A program made the translations under genes and the position numbers. Positions 15,739 to 26,129 of a stretch of 64,000 nt of DNA are shown one piece after another. The stretch covers positions 63,488,001-63,552,000 of the forward strand of contig NC_086100.1 of assembly GCF_963921235.1 (NCBI RefSeq), written 5' to 3'. The notes under the pieces are model-generated. The model saw only the letters and a program-made list of their open reading frames with translations. It was not told the DNA's origin and did not search any database. This DNA is from Mobula hypostoma (lineage: Eukaryota). Every line of letters starts with the position of its first letter. Position 1 is the first letter of the stretch.

Positions 15739-16101
15739 TATCTTCTAACAAACAATTAACTCAGAGTGGATCAATCATAAGCACATTTATTTTATTTTTA
15801 GCAAGAGAAGACTAGCACTGCACAAAAGCTGGTGATAGCTTCAAAAAAACAGACAACATAGTCATTCCTTTACACACAAGTGTTGGTTCTGTTCAATCAT
15901 TCTGTTCATCTGCTTAATCAGTGTACTTGGCATTCTTCCAGTAACTGAATCTGCTTGTCTTTCTGCAGTTTGTCAAGGACTCAGGGTCTGTTGCATAATG
16001 TTGCACAGACACTATTAGCAAAGCGCTTTTGGTACATTACAGATCCCATTTGCTACAGACAAAATGCCATCTTGTTACTACAAGTAAAATACATTTCCAC
16101 A
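15739..16101 (-). repeat. ERV-B 3' LTR, with polypurine tract at 16102-16114
   Basis: Colinear with 25592-25959; the minus strand reads aaaaaggaaggaa|TGTGGAAATG. Confidence 0.9.
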
Positions 16102-16229
16102 TTCCTTCCTTTTTGTCATTTCATGACCACACTACATTTTAATAAATACAGTAATTGAAATATGCATATGTATATAAAAGAGTGATGTAGTTTCAAAGCC
16201 CTACTCAAAAATCCATCCACTTCCTTTCC

Positions 16230-17130
16230 TTAATATCCTCTCCTTCGTTCTGTTATTTCACACAAAAAATCATAAAAGACTAATAGCCAATTATAATACC
16301 AATAGTTATAGCATAATACAGAATAGTTGCCCACCATCCTTCCAGCACCCTGAATGGCCAACATCCACTTCCTGGATGTGCCATAGTTGTGATACTGATT
16401 CCCTACTTTCTTAATCCGTTTGGCAGCTTCTCGGATGTGATTTGCCAAGTCATATTTTCCTATTCATTAGGTATGTAAGTCCAGCAACACAAATACCTCC
16501 TTTTTCTGATAGAGTAAAATCCAAAACCAACCTGTTCTGTAAAGCTATGGCTCTCTTCACTACCCCTCATACTTGGAGGACATGCCCGTAGGCACAGTAA
16601 CCGCATAACCAGTAAATGCTGCTCGGCAGATGGGGGGGGGGGGAGAAACAGAGATTTGTCAGTTCTGTGCATTTACCTTTTCTACTCCCCAGTGACATGC
16701 TACCTGATCAACACCCTCGGCCACTGCACCAGACCGCTTCATGTGGGGAATCTGGTTCCCATACTTCTTGCAGATGCACCAATGCACTAAAAGTGGGGAA
16801 TGCACCATCCATTAAAGCAATCATAATGGCAATCAGTGACTATCCTGTGACAGCTCAGCTCCACTCATCCCTGAATTATTCATGAAAGTGTACCCTGAAC
16901 CCCATTCACCGGGATTAAAGAAACCATTCAGAGCCAAATCCTGCTTCACAGTGCAATGGAATGGGAGTACAAATCCAACAGGCTGAAATGGTCAGTTGTT
17001 AGGCGAATTCATAACCAAGCAAAAAGGAAGAGTTATGAGCAAGGGCACTGTTTATATATGCCAGGTCATCTGTTAGTTCCAGATTCACCAGTACGAGCAG
17101 GGCAATTTATGCAGTATTGAGGGATCTCAT
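16230..17130 (-). pseudogene. env: ERV-B gamma-type envelope remnant
   Basis: Hydrophobic leader, CWIC at 16969-16980, YWLCG, ISD ALQNRLVLDFTLSEKGGIC at 16489-16542, followed by CWTYIPNE; ATG overlaps the integrase stop (ATGA at 17127-17130). Confidence 0.9.
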
Positions 17131-17699
17131 GTTTTAATTGGCTTGGAAGTCTTCTTACAGTGCGAGCCGTGTATCCATGATGGTTTCTCTCTTACCTTGG
17201 TAGATGTATTAGTCACCAACAGTACATGGCATGGTCCTTCAAACTGATGTTGCAAACAATCCTTCTGACTAAATGTCCAGCCAACCACATAATCTCCAGG
17301 TTCTCTGTCATGAACTTAGTGTTGGCATCAGCCATTGTGCTTCCTTCAAGCGATACTTTTCATCAAGGATGCACAATAGGCCAACATGCTTTCGTCCAAA
17401 TTATGCACATCTGTTTGATTAACTCTTAGTGGTACATCAAACAGCAGGTACAATGGCTGTTCCATTATGACTTTGTGGGGGGAACAATTCTGTTGGCTAT
17501 GGCTCTAATGGTCATACAGACCAATGGTAATACTTGTTTCCATCTTGATCCACATTTTAACAAGCCTGTTTTTAATTGTTCCATTCATGCTCTCTATGAG
17601 GCCAAGGATGGTAGCTGCAATGGAAATGTTGGTCAATCTGTAAGGCCTTCTTTTATTACCTTCCCAGTAAAGTAGGGACTGTTGTCACTAGGGAGTTTT

Positions 17700-20600
17700 A
17701 AGAAGGAAGAGAAGCAGAAGAGAGGAAATTATAGGCCAGTTAGTCTGGTGTCAGTGGTTGGGAAAATGTTGGAGTCAATTGTTAAGAATATGGTTTCAGG
17801 GTACCTGGAAGCACATGATTAAATAGGCCATCCCAGCGTGGTTTCCTCAAGAGAAAATCTTGCCTGAAAAATATGTTGAAATTCTTTGAAGAAATAGCAT
17901 GCAGAACAGACAAAGGAGAATTGGTTGATGCTGTGTACTTGGTTATCAGAAGGCTGTGATGAGGTGCCACACATCAGGCTGCTTAACCAGTTAAGAACCC
18001 ATTGTATTACAGGAAAGATTCTAGCATGGATGAAGCAGTGTATGATTGGCAGGAGGCAAAGTGTGGGAATAAAGGGAGCTTTTTCTGGTTGGCTACCAGT
18101 GACTAGTGGTGTTCCACAGACGTCTGTGTTGGGACTGTTCCTTTTTGTGCTATATGTCAATGATTTGGATGACAGAATATATGGCTTTGTTGCAAAGTTT
18201 GCTAATGATATGAAGAGAGGTGGAGGGACAGGTAGTCTTGAAGAAGCTGAGTAAATACATCTATTGATGCTTCTGGACACATCTTCAGTGATGTTCCTGG
18301 AATCATTGGGTGTTTCGGGTCTTTCAACATCATACAACCTCCTCCAGGTGACCCAGCCGGGGCTGATCAGACCCCAGCTTGTGTCCAGATGGCTAGCTAC
18401 TTATGACTCTGTGGCTCCCCTCTTTTGAGCCAGAGCCATCTTGAGGCCCTCTCTGCCACATCAGTGGTACTGCGGATGGCTCTCCTCTTCCTCTCTCCCT
18501 CGATGCCCAAAATGCTGAAGGCTCTAACTAAAGAACGGGCTATGAATCCCCTACAACCAGCCTCCACTGGGAGACACCTCGCTCTCCATCCAGCCTGCTG
18601 ACAGTTGCTGACCAGTCCTGCGTACTTGGAGAACTTCCTTTCAAAGGCCTCTTCCAAGCTATCTTCCCATGGGACTGTCAGCTCCAGCAGCACCACTTGC
18701 TTAGTCGACTCAAACACTAGGACAATGTCTGATCACAGGGTGGTGGCTGCGATATGGTTGGGGAACTTCAGCTGCCCTTCGAGGTCCACCAACAGCTGCC
18801 AGTCCCTTGCAGAGGTCAGAATGCCTGCAGATGTTCTTTTGGCATGTATTGGCTGCTCCCCTGCTCTGACAAAGGCAATGGTCTGCTTGGAGGGTCGGGA
18901 CCGCTTCGCCCACTCAACTCCTGCACTGACAGCTTCAGCGATGGTCTTCAGGACCTGATCATGCTTCCACCTGTACCGTCCCTCACCAAGTGCCCTTGCA
19001 CAGCCGCTGAGGATGTGCTCCAGGGTTCCTCGCTTGGAGCACAGTGGGCACGCAGATGACTCTGCCTTGACCCATGTGTGCAGGTTTGATGGGCTTGGAA
19101 GCACATTGTACACTGCCTGGATGAGAAATTGGATGCGGTGTGGTTTGGCTTTCCAAAGATCAGCCCAGGTCACTTTCCTCTCAACTGCATTCTCCCATCT
19201 TGTCCAAGCTCCCTGTTGCTTCATTCCCACCACCTTGCAGGCTCTCACCTCCTCCTGAACTAGACGACGCCTTTCCTTCCCTCTGGTGTCCATCTGGGGA
19301 GTTGGAAAGGATCCTAGCCCAGTTCGGCCTCGTGTGACCACTCCCACCAGCCTCCTGTGACGCAGCTTTGCCTCTGCCTCCTGAACAGCTTCCTCTGCCC
19401 TCCACTTCCTGCCAGTACTTACTTGGATCCCTGCTGTAGCCACCTTCGGGTCACTTGAGTCCCTATACTGTAGCACTTCTCTGGCTCTTGTTACCTTGAA
19501 GTCTTCCTCCAAGGATTTGAAGGGCGGTTGCAGTTTGTTGTGGTGTCCATAGAGTGCGATGCTGCTCAGGCTCTTTGGCAGCCCCAGCCATCTCCTGAGG
19601 TGGTTGCTAACCCTCCTCTCTAAGGTTTCGACTGTCGAGATTGGAACTGCATAGACGAGGAGGGGCCATAGGATTCTGGGAAGAATGACATACTGATACA
19701 CCCAGGCTTTAAATTTCCCAGGTAGCCCAGACTTGTCCACAGAATTCAGCCAGCCATCCAACTCAGTGCAGATTGCCTGATGGATGTTGTGTCCAGTAAA
19801 GAGCTGTCAAAAACTTTGCCTAAGCTCTTGACTGGCTTTTCTGTGATGGTTGGGATGGCTGTGCCTGTGATGCTGAACTGGAACTTGTTCTCCACCTTCC
19901 CTTTCCTCAGCACCATCGATCTTGATTTGGCAGGCTTGAAACGCATCCGGGCCCACTCCACCAGCTTTTCGAGCCCTTGCAGAATCCTCCGGCAGCCTGG
20001 GACTGATTCTGTGGTGACTGTGAGGTCATCCACGAATGCCTAGAAAGTCTACGGAAGGACTTAGACAGATTCGGAGAATGGGCAAAGAAATGGCAGATGG
20101 AATACAGTGTCGGGAAGTGTATGGTCATGCTCTTTGGTAGAAGAAATCAAAGGGTAGACTATTTTCTAAATGGAGAGAAATTTCAAAATTTTGAGGTGCA
20201 AAAGGACTTGTGAGTCTTTGTGCAGGATTCCTTGAAGGTTAATTTACAGGTTGAGTCTGTGGTGAGGAAGCCAAATGCGAAGTTATCATACATTTCAAGT
20301 GGACTATAATATAAAAGAAAGGATATAATACTGATGCTTTATAAAGCACTGGTGAGGCCTCTTGTCTTGACACTGCAGAGGGTTCAAAGGAGGTTCATGA
20401 AAATGATTCCAGCATTGAGTGCTTGTCCTATGAAGAGCGTTTGATGGCTCTGGGCCTGTACTCAGTGGAATTCAGAAGAATGAGGGGTGACTTAATTGAA
20501 ACCTATTGAATGTTGAAACGCCTTAACAGAGTAGATGTTTCCTGTGGTGGGAGCATTTAGGACCAGAGGACACGACCTCAGAATAGAGGGGCGTCCATCT

Positions 20601-20893
20601 TAAATGGAGATGAGCTGGAATTTCTTTAGCCAGAGAGTGGTGAATCTGTGGAAATTATTGTCACAGGCAGCTTTGGGGGCCAAATCTTTATGTATATTTA
20701 AGGCAGAGGGTGATAGATTCTTGGCTGGTCTGGGCACCAAGTGATAAGGGGAGAAGGCAGGAGATTGGGGATGAGAGGAACAAAGGATCAGCCGTGATAG
20801 AATGGCGGATCAGCCATGATGAAATGGTGGAGCAGACCTGATGGGCCAACTGTCCTAATTCTGCTCCTATATCTTATGGCCTTATAGTCTTAT
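17700..20893 (+). mobile_element. CR1-type LINE inserted in ERV-B integrase, itself split by HERO
   Basis: RT motifs (NYRPVSL, VTSGVPQ, AKFANDMK) to 18251, continuing from 20041 to the tail tcttatggccttatagtcttat. Confidence 0.9.
18252..20040 (-). mobile_element. HERO (R2-superfamily, RLE-type) non-LTR retrotransposon, 5'-truncated
   Basis: AFVDDLTVTT (RT catalytic), DKSGLPGKFKAW, CPLCSKRGTLEHILSGC, WKHDQVL, ELTVPWE, PVEAGCRGF; only a few frameshifts. Confidence 0.9.
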
Positions 20894-21117
20894 AAACATT
20901 TAGCTCCTGTAACTGCCTCATTCTTTCTGAAAGGAAATACTTCAACCCATCCTGAAAAAATACATCAATAATGACCAATACATATTTATATCATTCATAT
21001 CATTGAAGGCAAGTCTATAAAATCTATTTGTAAATGCATGAGTAGTCCATCAAAGGATGATGCATGAGATGCTTCCATCTTCACTATTTTCCATGGATTT
21101 TGTGAAATATAGTACAT

Positions 21118-23655
21118 CAGGACCGGATTAAGCTAATGCCTTTACCATATGTTATAAAGGGGCCCTAAATTAAAAAGATGCACATGAGTATTAAAGCATA
21201 AATTATTTACTTGCATAGTAAAGTAATTCAATTTTTTTCATTTGCTATACAGCCAGATAATACAACAAATGTCTGACACTTCAGTAATAGTATTACTTCC
21301 ATGTAGGTATCAATTTCAAATGTCAAAAGTAATAAAACTACAATTTAAAAGTTTTATTTTCTAGATTTAGCATGAGCACGTTTGTTGATGGTACTGGAAA
21401 TGTCTATTTCACGCAGAAGTTCATGTTCAGTGCTCATTAGAGTGAGATTGTTCAATCTGTTTTGACCCATGGTGCTCCTTAGTTCATTTTTAATCCTTTT
21501 CAGTTTTGAAAATGAGCGTTCTCCACTGCAGTGGGTAACCATGAGTGACAAATAGATGCGCAAGGCATTTTCTACATTTGGAAAACATGACTCCAAAGAA
21601 TTGTCAGTTATCAAACGGTACAACTGTAACTCTACAAGGTCTTGTTTGGCGCCAATATGAGAAGCAAGATCAGTTTTCAACAGTTTAATAAACTGCACAA
21701 ATTCTTCATCAAGACTTTCTTCCAGATCTTCCAGATGTGATTTAATAAGATTTGATGACCTCTTTATGATTGCTTCAGGTGTAAATGACTGTAACTGATG
21801 AAGAAATCCAAAAACACCATTCACCTTTAGGCAACATACATCAAAGTTGCTGGTGAACGCAGCAGGCCAAGCAGCATCTATAGAAAGAGGTGCAGTCGAC
21901 GTTTCAGGCCGAGACCCTTCGTCAGGACTAACTGAAGGAAGAGTGAGTAAGGGATTTGAAAGTTGGAGGGGGAGGGGGAGATCCAAAATGATAGGAGAAG
22001 ACAGGAGGGGGAGGGATAGAGCCGAGAGCTGGACAGGTGATAGGCAAAAGGGGATACGAGAGGATCATGGGACAGGAGGTCCGGGAAGAAAGACAAGGGG
22101 GGGGGGTGACCCTCTTCCCGTCTTTCTTCCCGGACCTCCTGTCCCATGATCCTCTCGTATCCCCTTTTGCCTATCACCTGTCCAGCTCTCGGCTCTATCC
22201 CTCCCCCTCCTGTCTTCTCCTATCATTTTGGATCTCCCCCTCCCCCTCCCCCTCCAACTTTCAAATCCCTTACTCACTCTTCCTTCAGTTAGCCCTGACG
22301 AAGGGTCTCGGCCTGAAACGTTGACTGCACCTCTTTCTATAGATGCTGCTTGGCCTGCTGCGTTCACCAGCAACTTTGATGTATGTTGCTTGAATTTCCA
22401 GCATCTGCAGAATTCCTGTTATTCACCTTTAGATAAGCTTTCTGCCTTTTTGACAGGGCAGAAAGCAAGCTGTCAATAATGGCAAGAAATGTCTGGCTTT
22501 TAAACTTCTGAGAAGGCATTTGAAATTCAACAAGTGGATCAAGAGTGCTGGAACAACTGAAATCATCATACCTGCAAATTTGCTTGTGTTTACTTCAAGT
22601 TTGCTGTTGATAATCTTCACACTTAGTCAGATCCTTGGATTTTTGCTCAATGTCTGAAAAAGTAGACCACATAACTTGAATATATCCATGCAAGGATTCA
22701 CAGAGTGCACAAGTTGTGTTCAAGTCTTGACCAGAAGATTGCAAAGAAGCACTGGTCATTTGAAAACACTATAATACTTGATCTAACAATATGACCATTA
22801 TTCCTCTTTCCAACTTCGTCATGGTTGAAAGTAGTCCACGAGCCTGTTGTCAACACTCTGCCTTCTGATCATTGTTATTTGAAATGTCATCCAAGACTTC
22901 TTCTATTGAAGAAAAGCTGTGTAAAAGTGCTTTTGTTGCATCTGCACGAGCTGACCACCTGGTATCTGACATTATTTTCACAATGGGCAAATGAGCACCA
23001 CCATCAGAAAATGCAGCAGAAAGGAGATCCCACTGATAAGTAGAAGCAGAAAAAAATATGTACAGGCTTTCTACAAATTGAAAGAAAATTAATGCTTCTT
23101 GACCACATTCAGCAGCGCATTTTCCAACCAAATTTAGTGATTCAACTCATTCAGCTCTTTAATTCATGCTTGTAAGCCACTATACTTGCCACTCATGTTG
23201 CTGGCATTGTCATAACTTTGACCACGACAGTGTTTTATATCAATGTCATTTTCCTTTAAAAAGTCAAGTAAACTTTGAGCGAGCTCTTCAGCATTATGAT
23301 CTTCCATATCCAAAAACTTCACAAATCTTTCAACTGGTCCAGACGGCAAAACATAGCGCACAGTCAAAGTCAGCAGCGCAACTTCCAGCGGCGTAACAGC
23401 GCACGCTGCAGTGGCTTGGGAGTGTGGGAGATAGCACAAAGGTCACCACCACACAGCAAGGAGCCAACACACGCCTGCACACACATACCATGCAGCTCCC
23501 CCACCATGAAAACAACAGCGTTGCCAGATCGTCGTGAGAATACGGTGAGATCTCGATTTCACCAGACTGCAGCTTGCAACCATTTAGTGCAGGGCCCTCA
23601 AAAATGTGGGGGCCGTAGCGTATGCTACTTTTGCTACTCGGTTAATCTGGCCCTG
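21118..23655 (-). mobile_element. hAT DNA transposon (Tip100/ZMYM-like transposase remnant)
   Basis: TIRs caggaccggattaa / ttaatctggccctg; 8-bp TSD (t/c)agtacat at 21110-21117 and 23656-23663; motifs RGQSYDNASNMSG, SDTRWSARADA, CSGERSFSKLKRIKNELRSTMGQNRL. Confidence 0.92.
21831..22420. mobile_element. palindromic (inverted) Penelope pseudo-LTR dimer with 12-bp TSD
   Basis: TSD attcacctttag at 21819-21830 and 22421-22432; ~21831-22095 is the near-perfect reverse complement of ~22120-22389; hammerheads at 21894-21929(-) and 22291-22326(+). Confidence 0.93.
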
Positions 23656-23740
23656 CAGTACATATCACACATTGTACACAAACTTGATTTGCATCTTGCG
23701 ATAAACTAGGACATACCATGTTTGATTTATACATTCTATC

Positions 23741-23840
23741 AATCCTTTCTTTAGCCTCTGGGGAAAGAGTACTGTGCCCTGAAGGGTACTGGAGCATTTG
23801 AGTTGATTGGCCACTTTATGTGGCTCAGCTGTCAGCAATT
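23741..23840 (-). pseudogene. pol: ERV-B RT N-terminal stub
   Basis: LLTAEPHKV..NSNAPVPFRAQY.LSPEAKERI, joined directly to the integrase Zn-binding region. Confidence 0.7.
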
Positions 23841-23999
23841 GGCTAGAGGACCCAAATCAGCACAAAAACAATCCTCCAGCAACTTTCTTTTCAAAGGTTG
23901 CCTCTGCTCCTAGTGTACTAGAGAGTGATAAAAAAAAAAGCCCTTACCTCCTTAAAATTGCCAAATATTCCATCCAGTCATTTCCAGGACCTTCTGTCA

Positions 24000-24372
24000 T
24001 GGCAATTCTCAAAGACCCTTGACCATTAGTGCAAGGGCCTTTGCCACCTTAAATCTGGAAACTGCTAAAGTTAGGTGGGGTTCCCTATTCTCCTAATCTT
24101 GTACTGTGCACTGAACCTTGTGGGGAGTTCACAATACCAGAAACCCCCGCATGTATTTCAGAAGTGTATAGAACAATTTCCTTACTGATATAAGAGTTCA
24201 ATTTCCAATGCATAAAATGGTCATTTCCAGCCGGGTGAAGATAACAGTGCCACATACCCAGTTGTAGGTCTAACCAGAATTGAGAGAAATCTCCAGACAC
24301 TTTCAAACCACTATCATAAAAATGTACCAGATTCTTTGGTAAGTGGGTAGTGAGCGCCTGCCACTTATACAA
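24000..24372 (-). pseudogene. 2H phosphoesterase-like domain between protease and RT of ERV-B
   Basis: MWHCYLH at 24241-24252 (degenerate first HxT) and, after a frameshift, REPHLTLAVSRFKVAKALALMVK at 24060-24080 (second HxT). Confidence 0.6.
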
Positions 24373-24399
24373 AATAGGTTAACTCCTACTGAAATAGTA

Positions 24400-25123
24400 T
24401 AGTCTCTGGTATACACACATTAGTTGTCTCACAAGTGCAGGTAATAGTAGCTCACATTTTACACAATAAATCTCTTCTAAATAAGTTTACAGGCACAGGA
24501 TCCTGATATCCTGTGCTAACCTCTACTGGGTTTGATTTCAGGACATTAATAGGCTGTCCTCTGTGTGGCAAGGACAGAATGCAATTTGGGCTGAAGACAT
24601 TTGCAATGGAGCTAATTGTACGTCCCATAGCCTGCACTTTTGGCACACCTGAATATTGTTCTTTTCTGTACTACCTTTTTCATATACTCTTCTCCCTTGT
24701 GTCTCCATAACCTTAGACCAATTAACCCTTTTAGGAAAGTCAACATGTAATGCCCCATACATATTTTTATAAAAATCTTTATTTGGCATCGTGGCAGGTC
24801 CTGTTCCTGAAAGCCCTGAAATTTAACCTCATAAAATTCAACCTGGGAGCCTAACCATGCCCTTGTTAAGGTTTCCAAATCCATATTACTAGCTTTGTGG
24901 CACAAAACAGTAGTTGTATATTCTAGAATAGCCTTTTCCAAATCTGTTTCCAGATTGGGCCACTCTTCTACCATGGCCCGTAATTCTCCTGCCGTCCAAG
25001 GTCGATATATACTGCTTGGTTCCCTATCCATAGTTCTTCCACCAATCCCTTCCCATAATTATTAAACATATACTATACTGATGTCCCCTTATTTGGGACA
25101 GGGAAAGACTCTCCTTGTCCCAT
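24400..25123 (-). pseudogene. gag: ERV-B gag and protease remnants
   Basis: MGQGESFPVPNKGTSV*YMFNNYG (myristoylation-type start at 25123), YRPWTAGELRAMVEEWP, FPKRVNWSKVMETQ; protease C-terminus PVNLFRRDLLCKM*ATITC. Confidence 0.8.
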
Positions 25124-25591
25124 TATGACCAGTTTCTAGTCTCTCTTCCTCACCTTACTTACCATATTTTCTTTTTCTTTTGTTCACTACAGCATCCTGT
25201 AGGGATTAAATTTATGAGCCCAGTTTCAACAAATCCCACTCTTACATACTCTTTTTATAGTTGCGTCCCTGAGACTCATACCAATGCGTCCCTAACACCA
25301 TATATGTCTCTGACAGTCCTACCAGTCAAATCTAGTCCTTGATACCCAAATGTTTCTGGTTGCCGTGCCGAAAATGTTGGAATCATAGAGAGGGAAACTG
25401 ATCCACTCAACAGGTTGTGGCACAGATTGCATTGTATAGAAATAGAGCAGGGCAGAACCCAGTATTTCCTTCTCACCTGGAAAGGAAACTTACGTTTTGG
25501 TGATCACTCTTCCACTGCATTTCCCCCGGGAACAGGCAGTCACCAGGATTCCCCTTGGTCTGCTCCTTCAGCCAACACCTGAAAAGATCAG

Positions 25592-25959
25592 TGTCTTAAA
25601 ACAACCAACAATTAACTCAGAATGGATCAATCAGAAGTGCATTTATTTTACTTACAGCAAGGGAAGACAAGCACTACACAAGTGTCAGTGATAGCTTCAA
25701 AAACAGACAGCTTAGTCCCTCCTTTATACACAAGTGTTGGCTCAGTTCAAGGAGAGGGTGCATTCTGTTTGTTTGCTTAATCAGAGGGCATTCTTCCAGT
25801 ACTGAACCTGCTTGTCTTTCTACAGTTTGTCAAGGACTCAGGTTCCATTAAATAATGTTGCACAGACACTATTAACGAAGCAGTATGGTACAATGCAGGT
25901 TCCATTTTGTTATGGACAAAAATGCTATTTTGTTACTACAAGTAAAGTGCATTTCCACA
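25592..25959 (-). repeat. ERV-B 5' LTR
   Basis: Homologous to 15739-16101; AATAAA on the minus strand at ~25642-25647. Confidence 0.9.
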
Positions 25960-26129
25960 AAGCCACAATAACAGGTAGGGAATCGAGGAATACAGACCAT
26001 GTGAAGACAAAACATTTGGTTTAGTTGGCGTAGGTTTGGTGGGTTAGAAGGTCTGTTTCTCTGCTGACCTGTTCTGTGTTTTAAAGGGAGTGTTTGTACA
26101 TTGTCCCTGCAGTGAAGGGAGGGAGCACA

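Follow-up and report, generated by a model that had tools for sequence, protein, structure and literature searches.

2H phosphoesterase domains are known from a fish retrovirus and from WDSV (PMC9503650, citing Mazumder 2002), and in ray-finned fishes some epsilon-like ERVs code for domains of the CNPase or macro type (PMC4977317, citing Basta 2009). The occurrence of such domains in fish retroviruses, which a preliminary description of the locus studied here had taken as established, is thus already in print. In the accessible text of these two papers no position of the domain within pol is given, and the primary papers, including their supplements, may cover both position and taxa. The literature that we searched, from which most subscription journals are absent, contained in its accessible text no functional test of the domain and no report of it from cartilaginous fish; in the main text of a paper on shark ERVs (PMC4422223) a term search returned neither 'domain' nor 'phospho'. 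CNPase is described as using paired His-x-Thr motifs to open 2',3'-cyclic phosphates into 2'-phosphates (PMC4643303). The retention of an extra enzyme in pol across a wide range of fish retroviruses is a tractable question, narrowed by comparison through a predicted CNPase-type fold and persistence in hosts without OAS-RNase L.

Here, we describe a CNPase-like 2H domain, real though decayed, in a dead provirus of Mobula hypostoma that belongs to a family without RT. The provirus lies on the minus strand of the window (the whole stretch of 64,000 nucleotides that was analysed) at 15740-25960, and its elements are still in the order LTR-gag-pro-pol-env-LTR, as established by comparison with 10-kb stretches at 20 sister loci (see the table). 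We infer that it is a class I (epsilon-like) element from the similarity of its spacer, integrase and env to those of fish class I elements; an RT phylogeny is impossible for this family because the RT core is missing. The 5' LTR matches 15747-16101 at 80.6% identity, and the K2P distance of 0.167 across 346 sites (0.17 when rounded) makes this an old copy. The gag remnant keeps a YRPW motif (25007-24981) and a Cys-rich remnant (24656-24630), both on the minus strand. No catalytic DTG motif was seen in the protease remnant of the window copy; in one sister (L053) LVDTGAT lies upstream in the protease. Two insertions interrupt the integrase. The first is a DNA transposon that we take, from its motifs, to be a likely hAT; inside it lies a 560-bp near-perfect inverted repeat (95%, 21831-22389), built from a common interspersed repeat. 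The second, an interspersed repeat, is likely a LINE. In env, LQNRLVLDF is presumably immunosuppressive-domain-like.

Table. Features of the provirus in the window, in the direction of the element (~, approximate).
Feature	Position	Strand	Remarks
5' LTR	25593..25960	-	starts TGTGG; TATA and AATAAA inside; right end ~
gag remnant, stops and frameshifts	~24600..25450	-	collinear with sister copies
Protease C-terminal remnant	24455..24560	-	PVNLF..LLCKM; LLCKM at 24469-24455
Decayed CNPase-like 2H phosphoesterase domain (protease-RT spacer)	~23870..24400	-	tblastn to single-frame sister, family profile tests, homologue fold
Motif-1 His	24235..24237	-	18-nt deletion directly after, in window copy
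Motif 2 (H-L-T)	24069..24077	-	intact; frame differs from motif 1
RT N-terminal stub	23750..23860, junction ~	-	FRAQYS 23783-23766; RT core and RNase H missing, family-wide deletion
Integrase remnant start, zinc-finger CxxC	23660..23750	-	QVCVQCVIC 23686-23660; sisters' integrase matches directly follow RT stub
DNA transposon within integrase	21118..23655	.	terminal inverted repeats, 8-bp target duplication (7/8 matching); sisters continuous across
Integrase remnant, continued	20892..21109	-	LQIDFIDLP 21033-21007
Second insertion into integrase, interspersed repeat	17699..20885	.	not in collinear sisters; repeats elsewhere match
Integrase C-terminal remnant	17040..17698	-	collinear sister comparison
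env remnant	16103..16950	-	LQNRLVLDF 16542-16516
3' LTR	15740..16102	-	polypurine tract precedes

The landmarks of the preliminary description could all be located on the minus strand: the end of the protease, WHCYLH (24252-24235), a second motif in a different frame (EPHLTLAV, 24083-24060) and the N-terminus of RT. The copy is also dead, as it had been called, with stops, frameshifts and a deletion after the motif-1 His. Other details had to be revised. WHCYLH does not contain the HxT/S motif ascribed to it. The motif His is its second one according to the sister copies, which read H-x-T; the window copy reads H-P-A owing to an in-frame deletion of 18 nt right after this residue. The distance of 57 codons between motifs had been counted from the first His (H-C-Y) and so not from the motif residue. 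By tblastn the spacer has a length of about 175-185 codons, by comparison with a single-frame sister (~24400-23870), instead of the proposed 120 or so, and the RT said to follow it does begin there, but after just ~35 codons gives way to the integrase zinc-finger region. Taken alone, the window copy does not raise the motifs above chance: against an independent profile of 47 fish retroviral spacers (see below) its frames score 3.1 bits in the motif-2 half and -2.2 in the motif-1 half, and Pfam gives no match in 9 translations. For the family as a whole the motifs do stand above chance, in comparisons of the profile with shuffled sequences. One sister locus (L013) shows the same 6-codon gap directly after the motif-1 His as the window copy, through either common ancestry or a repeated deletion.

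In the 3.5-Gb genome, searching with DNA gave at least 79 matches (from 40 scored among 478 candidates); with the protein sequence of one sister copy as query there were at least 95 (from 150 scored among 175). HxT/S is found in 12 of 37 aligned loci at motif 1 and in 22 of 35 at motif 2, with 6 of 35 carrying it at both, the denominators including ~7 truncated loci in which the alignment enters unrelated DNA. In the 32 copies without indel there, the third codon of motif 1 encodes Thr in 13 cases and Met in another 12, a pattern that CpG decay after integration is expected to give. Among copies of the family dN/dS is 0.58, computed on stretches that had been selected for long frames. In tblastn with eight pol queries, the matches listed, which cover four of the queries, place neither an RT core nor RNase H collinearly in any of the 20 sister loci (L021-L026, L042-L055); one of these (L026) matches weakly in the RT region, out of order. 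The RT-integrase junction region is matched in 17 of these loci and spanned in 16. Hence, a common deletion fuses the first ~35 RT codons to the integrase zinc finger, while the 2H spacer and the env remnants are retained. Since the family shares this loss of RT core and RNase H, it likely spread non-autonomously, without an RT of its own, and the 2H domain was likely a passenger between deletions. A third abundant element (L101-L110, L116-L118, L120) has a protease, no 2H spacer and a short RT start running into integrase-like sequence, and RT-less families seem common in the M. hypostoma genome. The window copy itself adds little: it is old, its active site is broken and it comes from an RT-less family.

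A protease search of the genome revealed a younger ERV family with an open protease-spacer-RT reading and LHCT...PHITL motifs. This family is abundant (L062-L091, L111-L114), and its closest named relatives are ray proteins with 71-90% identity. The two His are 61 residues apart in all 19 copies examined, against 63 in the single-frame sister of the window's family. Identity between the spacers of the two families is about 16-28%, and hhalign aligns their profiles with a probability of 84% (E 7.5e-6), spanning both motifs. When the younger pol was used to search the databases, at least 118 proteins were found (7999 candidates scored), of which 47 have a spacer domain of >110 residues that matches the profile of the younger family with E < 1e-5. 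Of these 47 spacers, 41 have HxT/S at both motifs, and so do 18 of the 19 named ray-finned-fish records. We built a reverse profile from the 47 fish retroviral spacers, with the window's family excluded, and it matches 15 of the 24 stretches of that family at 11.7-43.5 bits, against a maximum of 4.3 in 1200 shuffles. In the other direction, the profile of the window's family matches fish pol spacers at positions 53-137, the best E being 2e-9 among 119 proteins. These sequence comparisons show the homology of the window's family to the 47 fish retroviral spacers and the conservation of the paired His motifs.

When two subgroups of the younger family are compared, dN/dS is 0.27 in the spacer and 0.13 in the protease (40 non-independent pairs); by this measure purifying selection has acted on the spacer between them. 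In a tree built on the RT of 24 database proteins, from which those without a recognisable protease or RT core were excluded, 9 of the 10 spacer-bearing proteins fall in one supported group, which is compatible with a single or with multiple origins. Pfam on the 24 family stretches gave one LigT_PEase match, which is not significant (E 0.17). With a single decayed copy phmmer found no match in PDB, in 1.84-billion representatives or in a word-indexed database, because decay of the copies has gone too far. Searching the PDB sequences with profiles yielded nothing beyond cadherin-level noise, and scans of viral and metagenome contigs found no relatives.

Structure prediction, which the preliminary description had proposed, succeeded for the homologue. 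AlphaFold modelled a natural open spacer of the younger family (46-row alignment) with pLDDT 94.8 and pTM 0.90, and each Foldseek row listed for PDB, down to rank 50, is CNPase or RICH (CNPase E 4e-7). In a structural comparison with 48,161 representative chains, CNPase came out with Z 17.1 and rmsd 3.1 over 162 aligned residues, at 14% identity (VIA). The runners-up are bacterial CPDase (Z 9.7), MHV NS2 (8.2) and Acb1 (8.0), followed by AKAP18 (7.4), rotavirus VP3 (7.3) and the poxvirus cGAMP phosphodiesterase (6.5). Among predicted viral structures, the three best matches are the polyproteins of WEHV1 and of WDSV together with an entry of 1072 aa (TM 0.78-0.87). Thus the homologue's spacer is predicted to be a 2H domain nearest to CNPase, but the same approach failed on the family's own remains: for 24 decayed copies pLDDT is 50 and the low-confidence model is not 2H-like. 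We infer a CNPase-type 2H fold for the window's family through its homology to the folded spacer of the younger one. The 2H identity put forward in the preliminary description therefore holds up, on reciprocal profile matches, on paired motifs in the family and its homologues and on the homologue's predicted fold; that the spacer of the window's family is a CNPase-like 2H domain is, in our judgement, nearly certain.

The sequence relationship to CNPase is distant. The Pfam CNPase model (PF05881) finds nothing over its cut-off in the window frames, the 24 family stretches or the younger spacer, and in a search of the genome it matched the host gene alone. Alignment by hhalign to a host CNP exon covers motif 2 only and is not significant (E 0.21 and 0.12). 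The context of the motifs is similar to that in the host CNP gene (PYYFGWF, LHCTTKF, SHITLAC). Host CNP exons are found twice, with near-equal scores, within 185 kb (G000:C91 33.78-33.96 Mb, L056-L061), and in one of the two places their order is unexpected; either the gene is duplicated or the assembly is at fault. In Pfam the younger spacer is matched best by Acb1, which spans both motifs and stays below the cut-off (E 0.006, 16.7 bits vs 27).

What might such an enzyme do in pol? We lean, with moderate confidence, towards a 2',3'-cyclic-phosphate phosphodiesterase acting on RNA ends and likely supporting reverse transcription. By general retroviral biology, a domain located in pol would be produced and packaged together with RT. 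In the active virus it would thus have been made inside the Pro-Pol polyprotein and carried with RT into particles, where it might have converted 2',3'-cyclic phosphates into 2'-phosphates and free 3'-OH ends, as CNPase does. The end healed in this way would likely be that of a nicked primer tRNA or of viral RNA, letting reverse transcription go on; the step of primer-tRNA repair is a guess. The CNPase reading has to face the lack of a significant sequence match to CNPase and the fact that Acb1 is the best Pfam match of the homologue. 2H enzymes also switch substrate readily. The looser wording of the preliminary description, a phosphodiesterase of RNA ends or of nucleotide messengers, stands. 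A broader scenario is more tentative, and we would sooner bet against it than for it: an early capture of a CNP-type enzyme may have given fish-lineage retroviruses a companion to RT that they have kept in sharks, rays, sturgeon and teleosts, as a virion-borne counter-defence independent of OAS-RNase L that mended host-nicked primer tRNA or destroyed a cyclic-nucleotide alarm.

The strongest alternative to the processing of RNA ends is that the domain destroys a cyclic-nucleotide immune messenger, e.g. the 2'3'-cGAMP made upon sensing of reverse-transcribed DNA, so that an enzyme delivered with RT would damp the alarm. Fish possess cGAS-STING, which senses retroviral DNA. The weak Acb1 match over both motifs (E 0.006) and the fold common to Acb1 (Z 8.0) and the poxvirus cGAMP phosphodiesterase (Z 6.5) point in this direction. 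Yet, CNPase lies some 9 Z units above Acb1 and the Pfam score of 16.7 bits falls short of the required 27, and we consider this role unlikely. Cleavage of 2-5A, by which NS2 and VP3 block OAS-RNase L, is less probable still, and the parallel drawn with these proteins in the preliminary description fares poorly. It can call upon the common superfamily (NS2 Z 8.2, VP3 Z 7.3) and upon OAS1_C-type genes in the M. hypostoma genome. About three such genes are clustered at G000:C78 31.04-31.17 Mb (L092-L096), with stop-containing matches on C59. A Pfam KEN search of the genome gave 2 loci, which by their motifs are presumably IRE1; a host RNase L may still exist. The OAS-RNase L pathway works in cartilaginous fish and had disappeared by the common ancestor of ray-finned fishes (PMC10400998). 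The predicted fold is of CNPase type (Z 17.1 vs 7-8 for the AKAP7, NS2 and VP3 types), whereas the known viral enzymes that cleave 2-5A go back to AKAP7-like genes (PMC10835031). Moreover, 18 of the 19 named ray-finned-fish records keep both motifs despite the loss of the pathway, and this persistence in hosts without OAS-RNase L disfavours 2-5A antagonism as a general role; in cartilaginous fish, where the pathway is retained, such a role keeps some probability.

A third possibility is that the domain acts as a decoy of host CNP or competes with it. Host CNP restricts the assembly of retroviral particles; a table row in PMC7471995 gives it as a binder of HIV matrix and an inhibitor of particle formation. 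CNPase is indeed the nearest structure to the viral domain. However, at 14% identity common binding surfaces are unlikely, and the catalytic motifs kept in 41 of the 47 spacers would be superfluous for a pure decoy, which makes this reading rather improbable. Finally, that the motifs are there by chance in a spacer unrelated to 2H enzymes, as the lack of a significant match for the window copy alone and the low-confidence, non-2H-like model of the decayed copies might suggest, is largely refuted by the bit scores of the family stretches against the shuffles, is at odds with reciprocal profile matches over both motifs, the same position in pol and a similar His spacing, and strikes us as very improbable.

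Among known systems, phage Acb1 (7t27) and the poxvirus cGAMP phosphodiesterase (9bkq) are viral 2H enzymes too, and a weak Pfam match links the domain to the former; it differs from both by their low structural scores (Z 8.0 and 6.5) and by a Pfam match under the cut-off. The viral 2'-5' phosphodiesterases, MHV NS2 (4z5v) and rotavirus VP3 (4rpt/6o3v), share with it the superfamily fold and the catalytic motifs, as does AKAP7/AKAP18. However, these enzymes, of an AKAP7/LigT-like lineage, score at Z 6.9-8.2, in the same range as further distant members of the 2H group, and the retroviral domain persists in hosts without OAS-RNase L. With vertebrate CNPase (mouse 2xmi, human 1woj, goldfish RICH 2i3e) the domain has in common the fold and LHCT/HIT-type motifs. 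It departs from them in its 14% identity, in a His-His spacing of 61-63 residues vs 79 in mouse (H230-H309), in the lack of a Pfam CNPase match and in its place within a viral polyprotein. The closest systems are the epsilon-like retroviruses of fish (WDSV and teleost ERVs), which like the M. hypostoma family combine paired His motifs with a class I element. The homologue's model matches the polyproteins of WDSV (TM 0.78, E 5e-9) and WEHV1 (TM 0.83, E 4e-11). Two walleye retrovirus entries that match the spacer, Q9WHI8 (1317 aa) and A4GTG3 (1159 aa), are labelled 'envelope polyprotein', and their lengths would fit Pro-Pol better. Relative to these viruses, the window's family has lost the RT core and RNase H, has a cartilaginous fish as host and represents a divergent lineage. 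Its value lies there: it takes the domain into a second lineage in cartilaginous fish, a divergent one.
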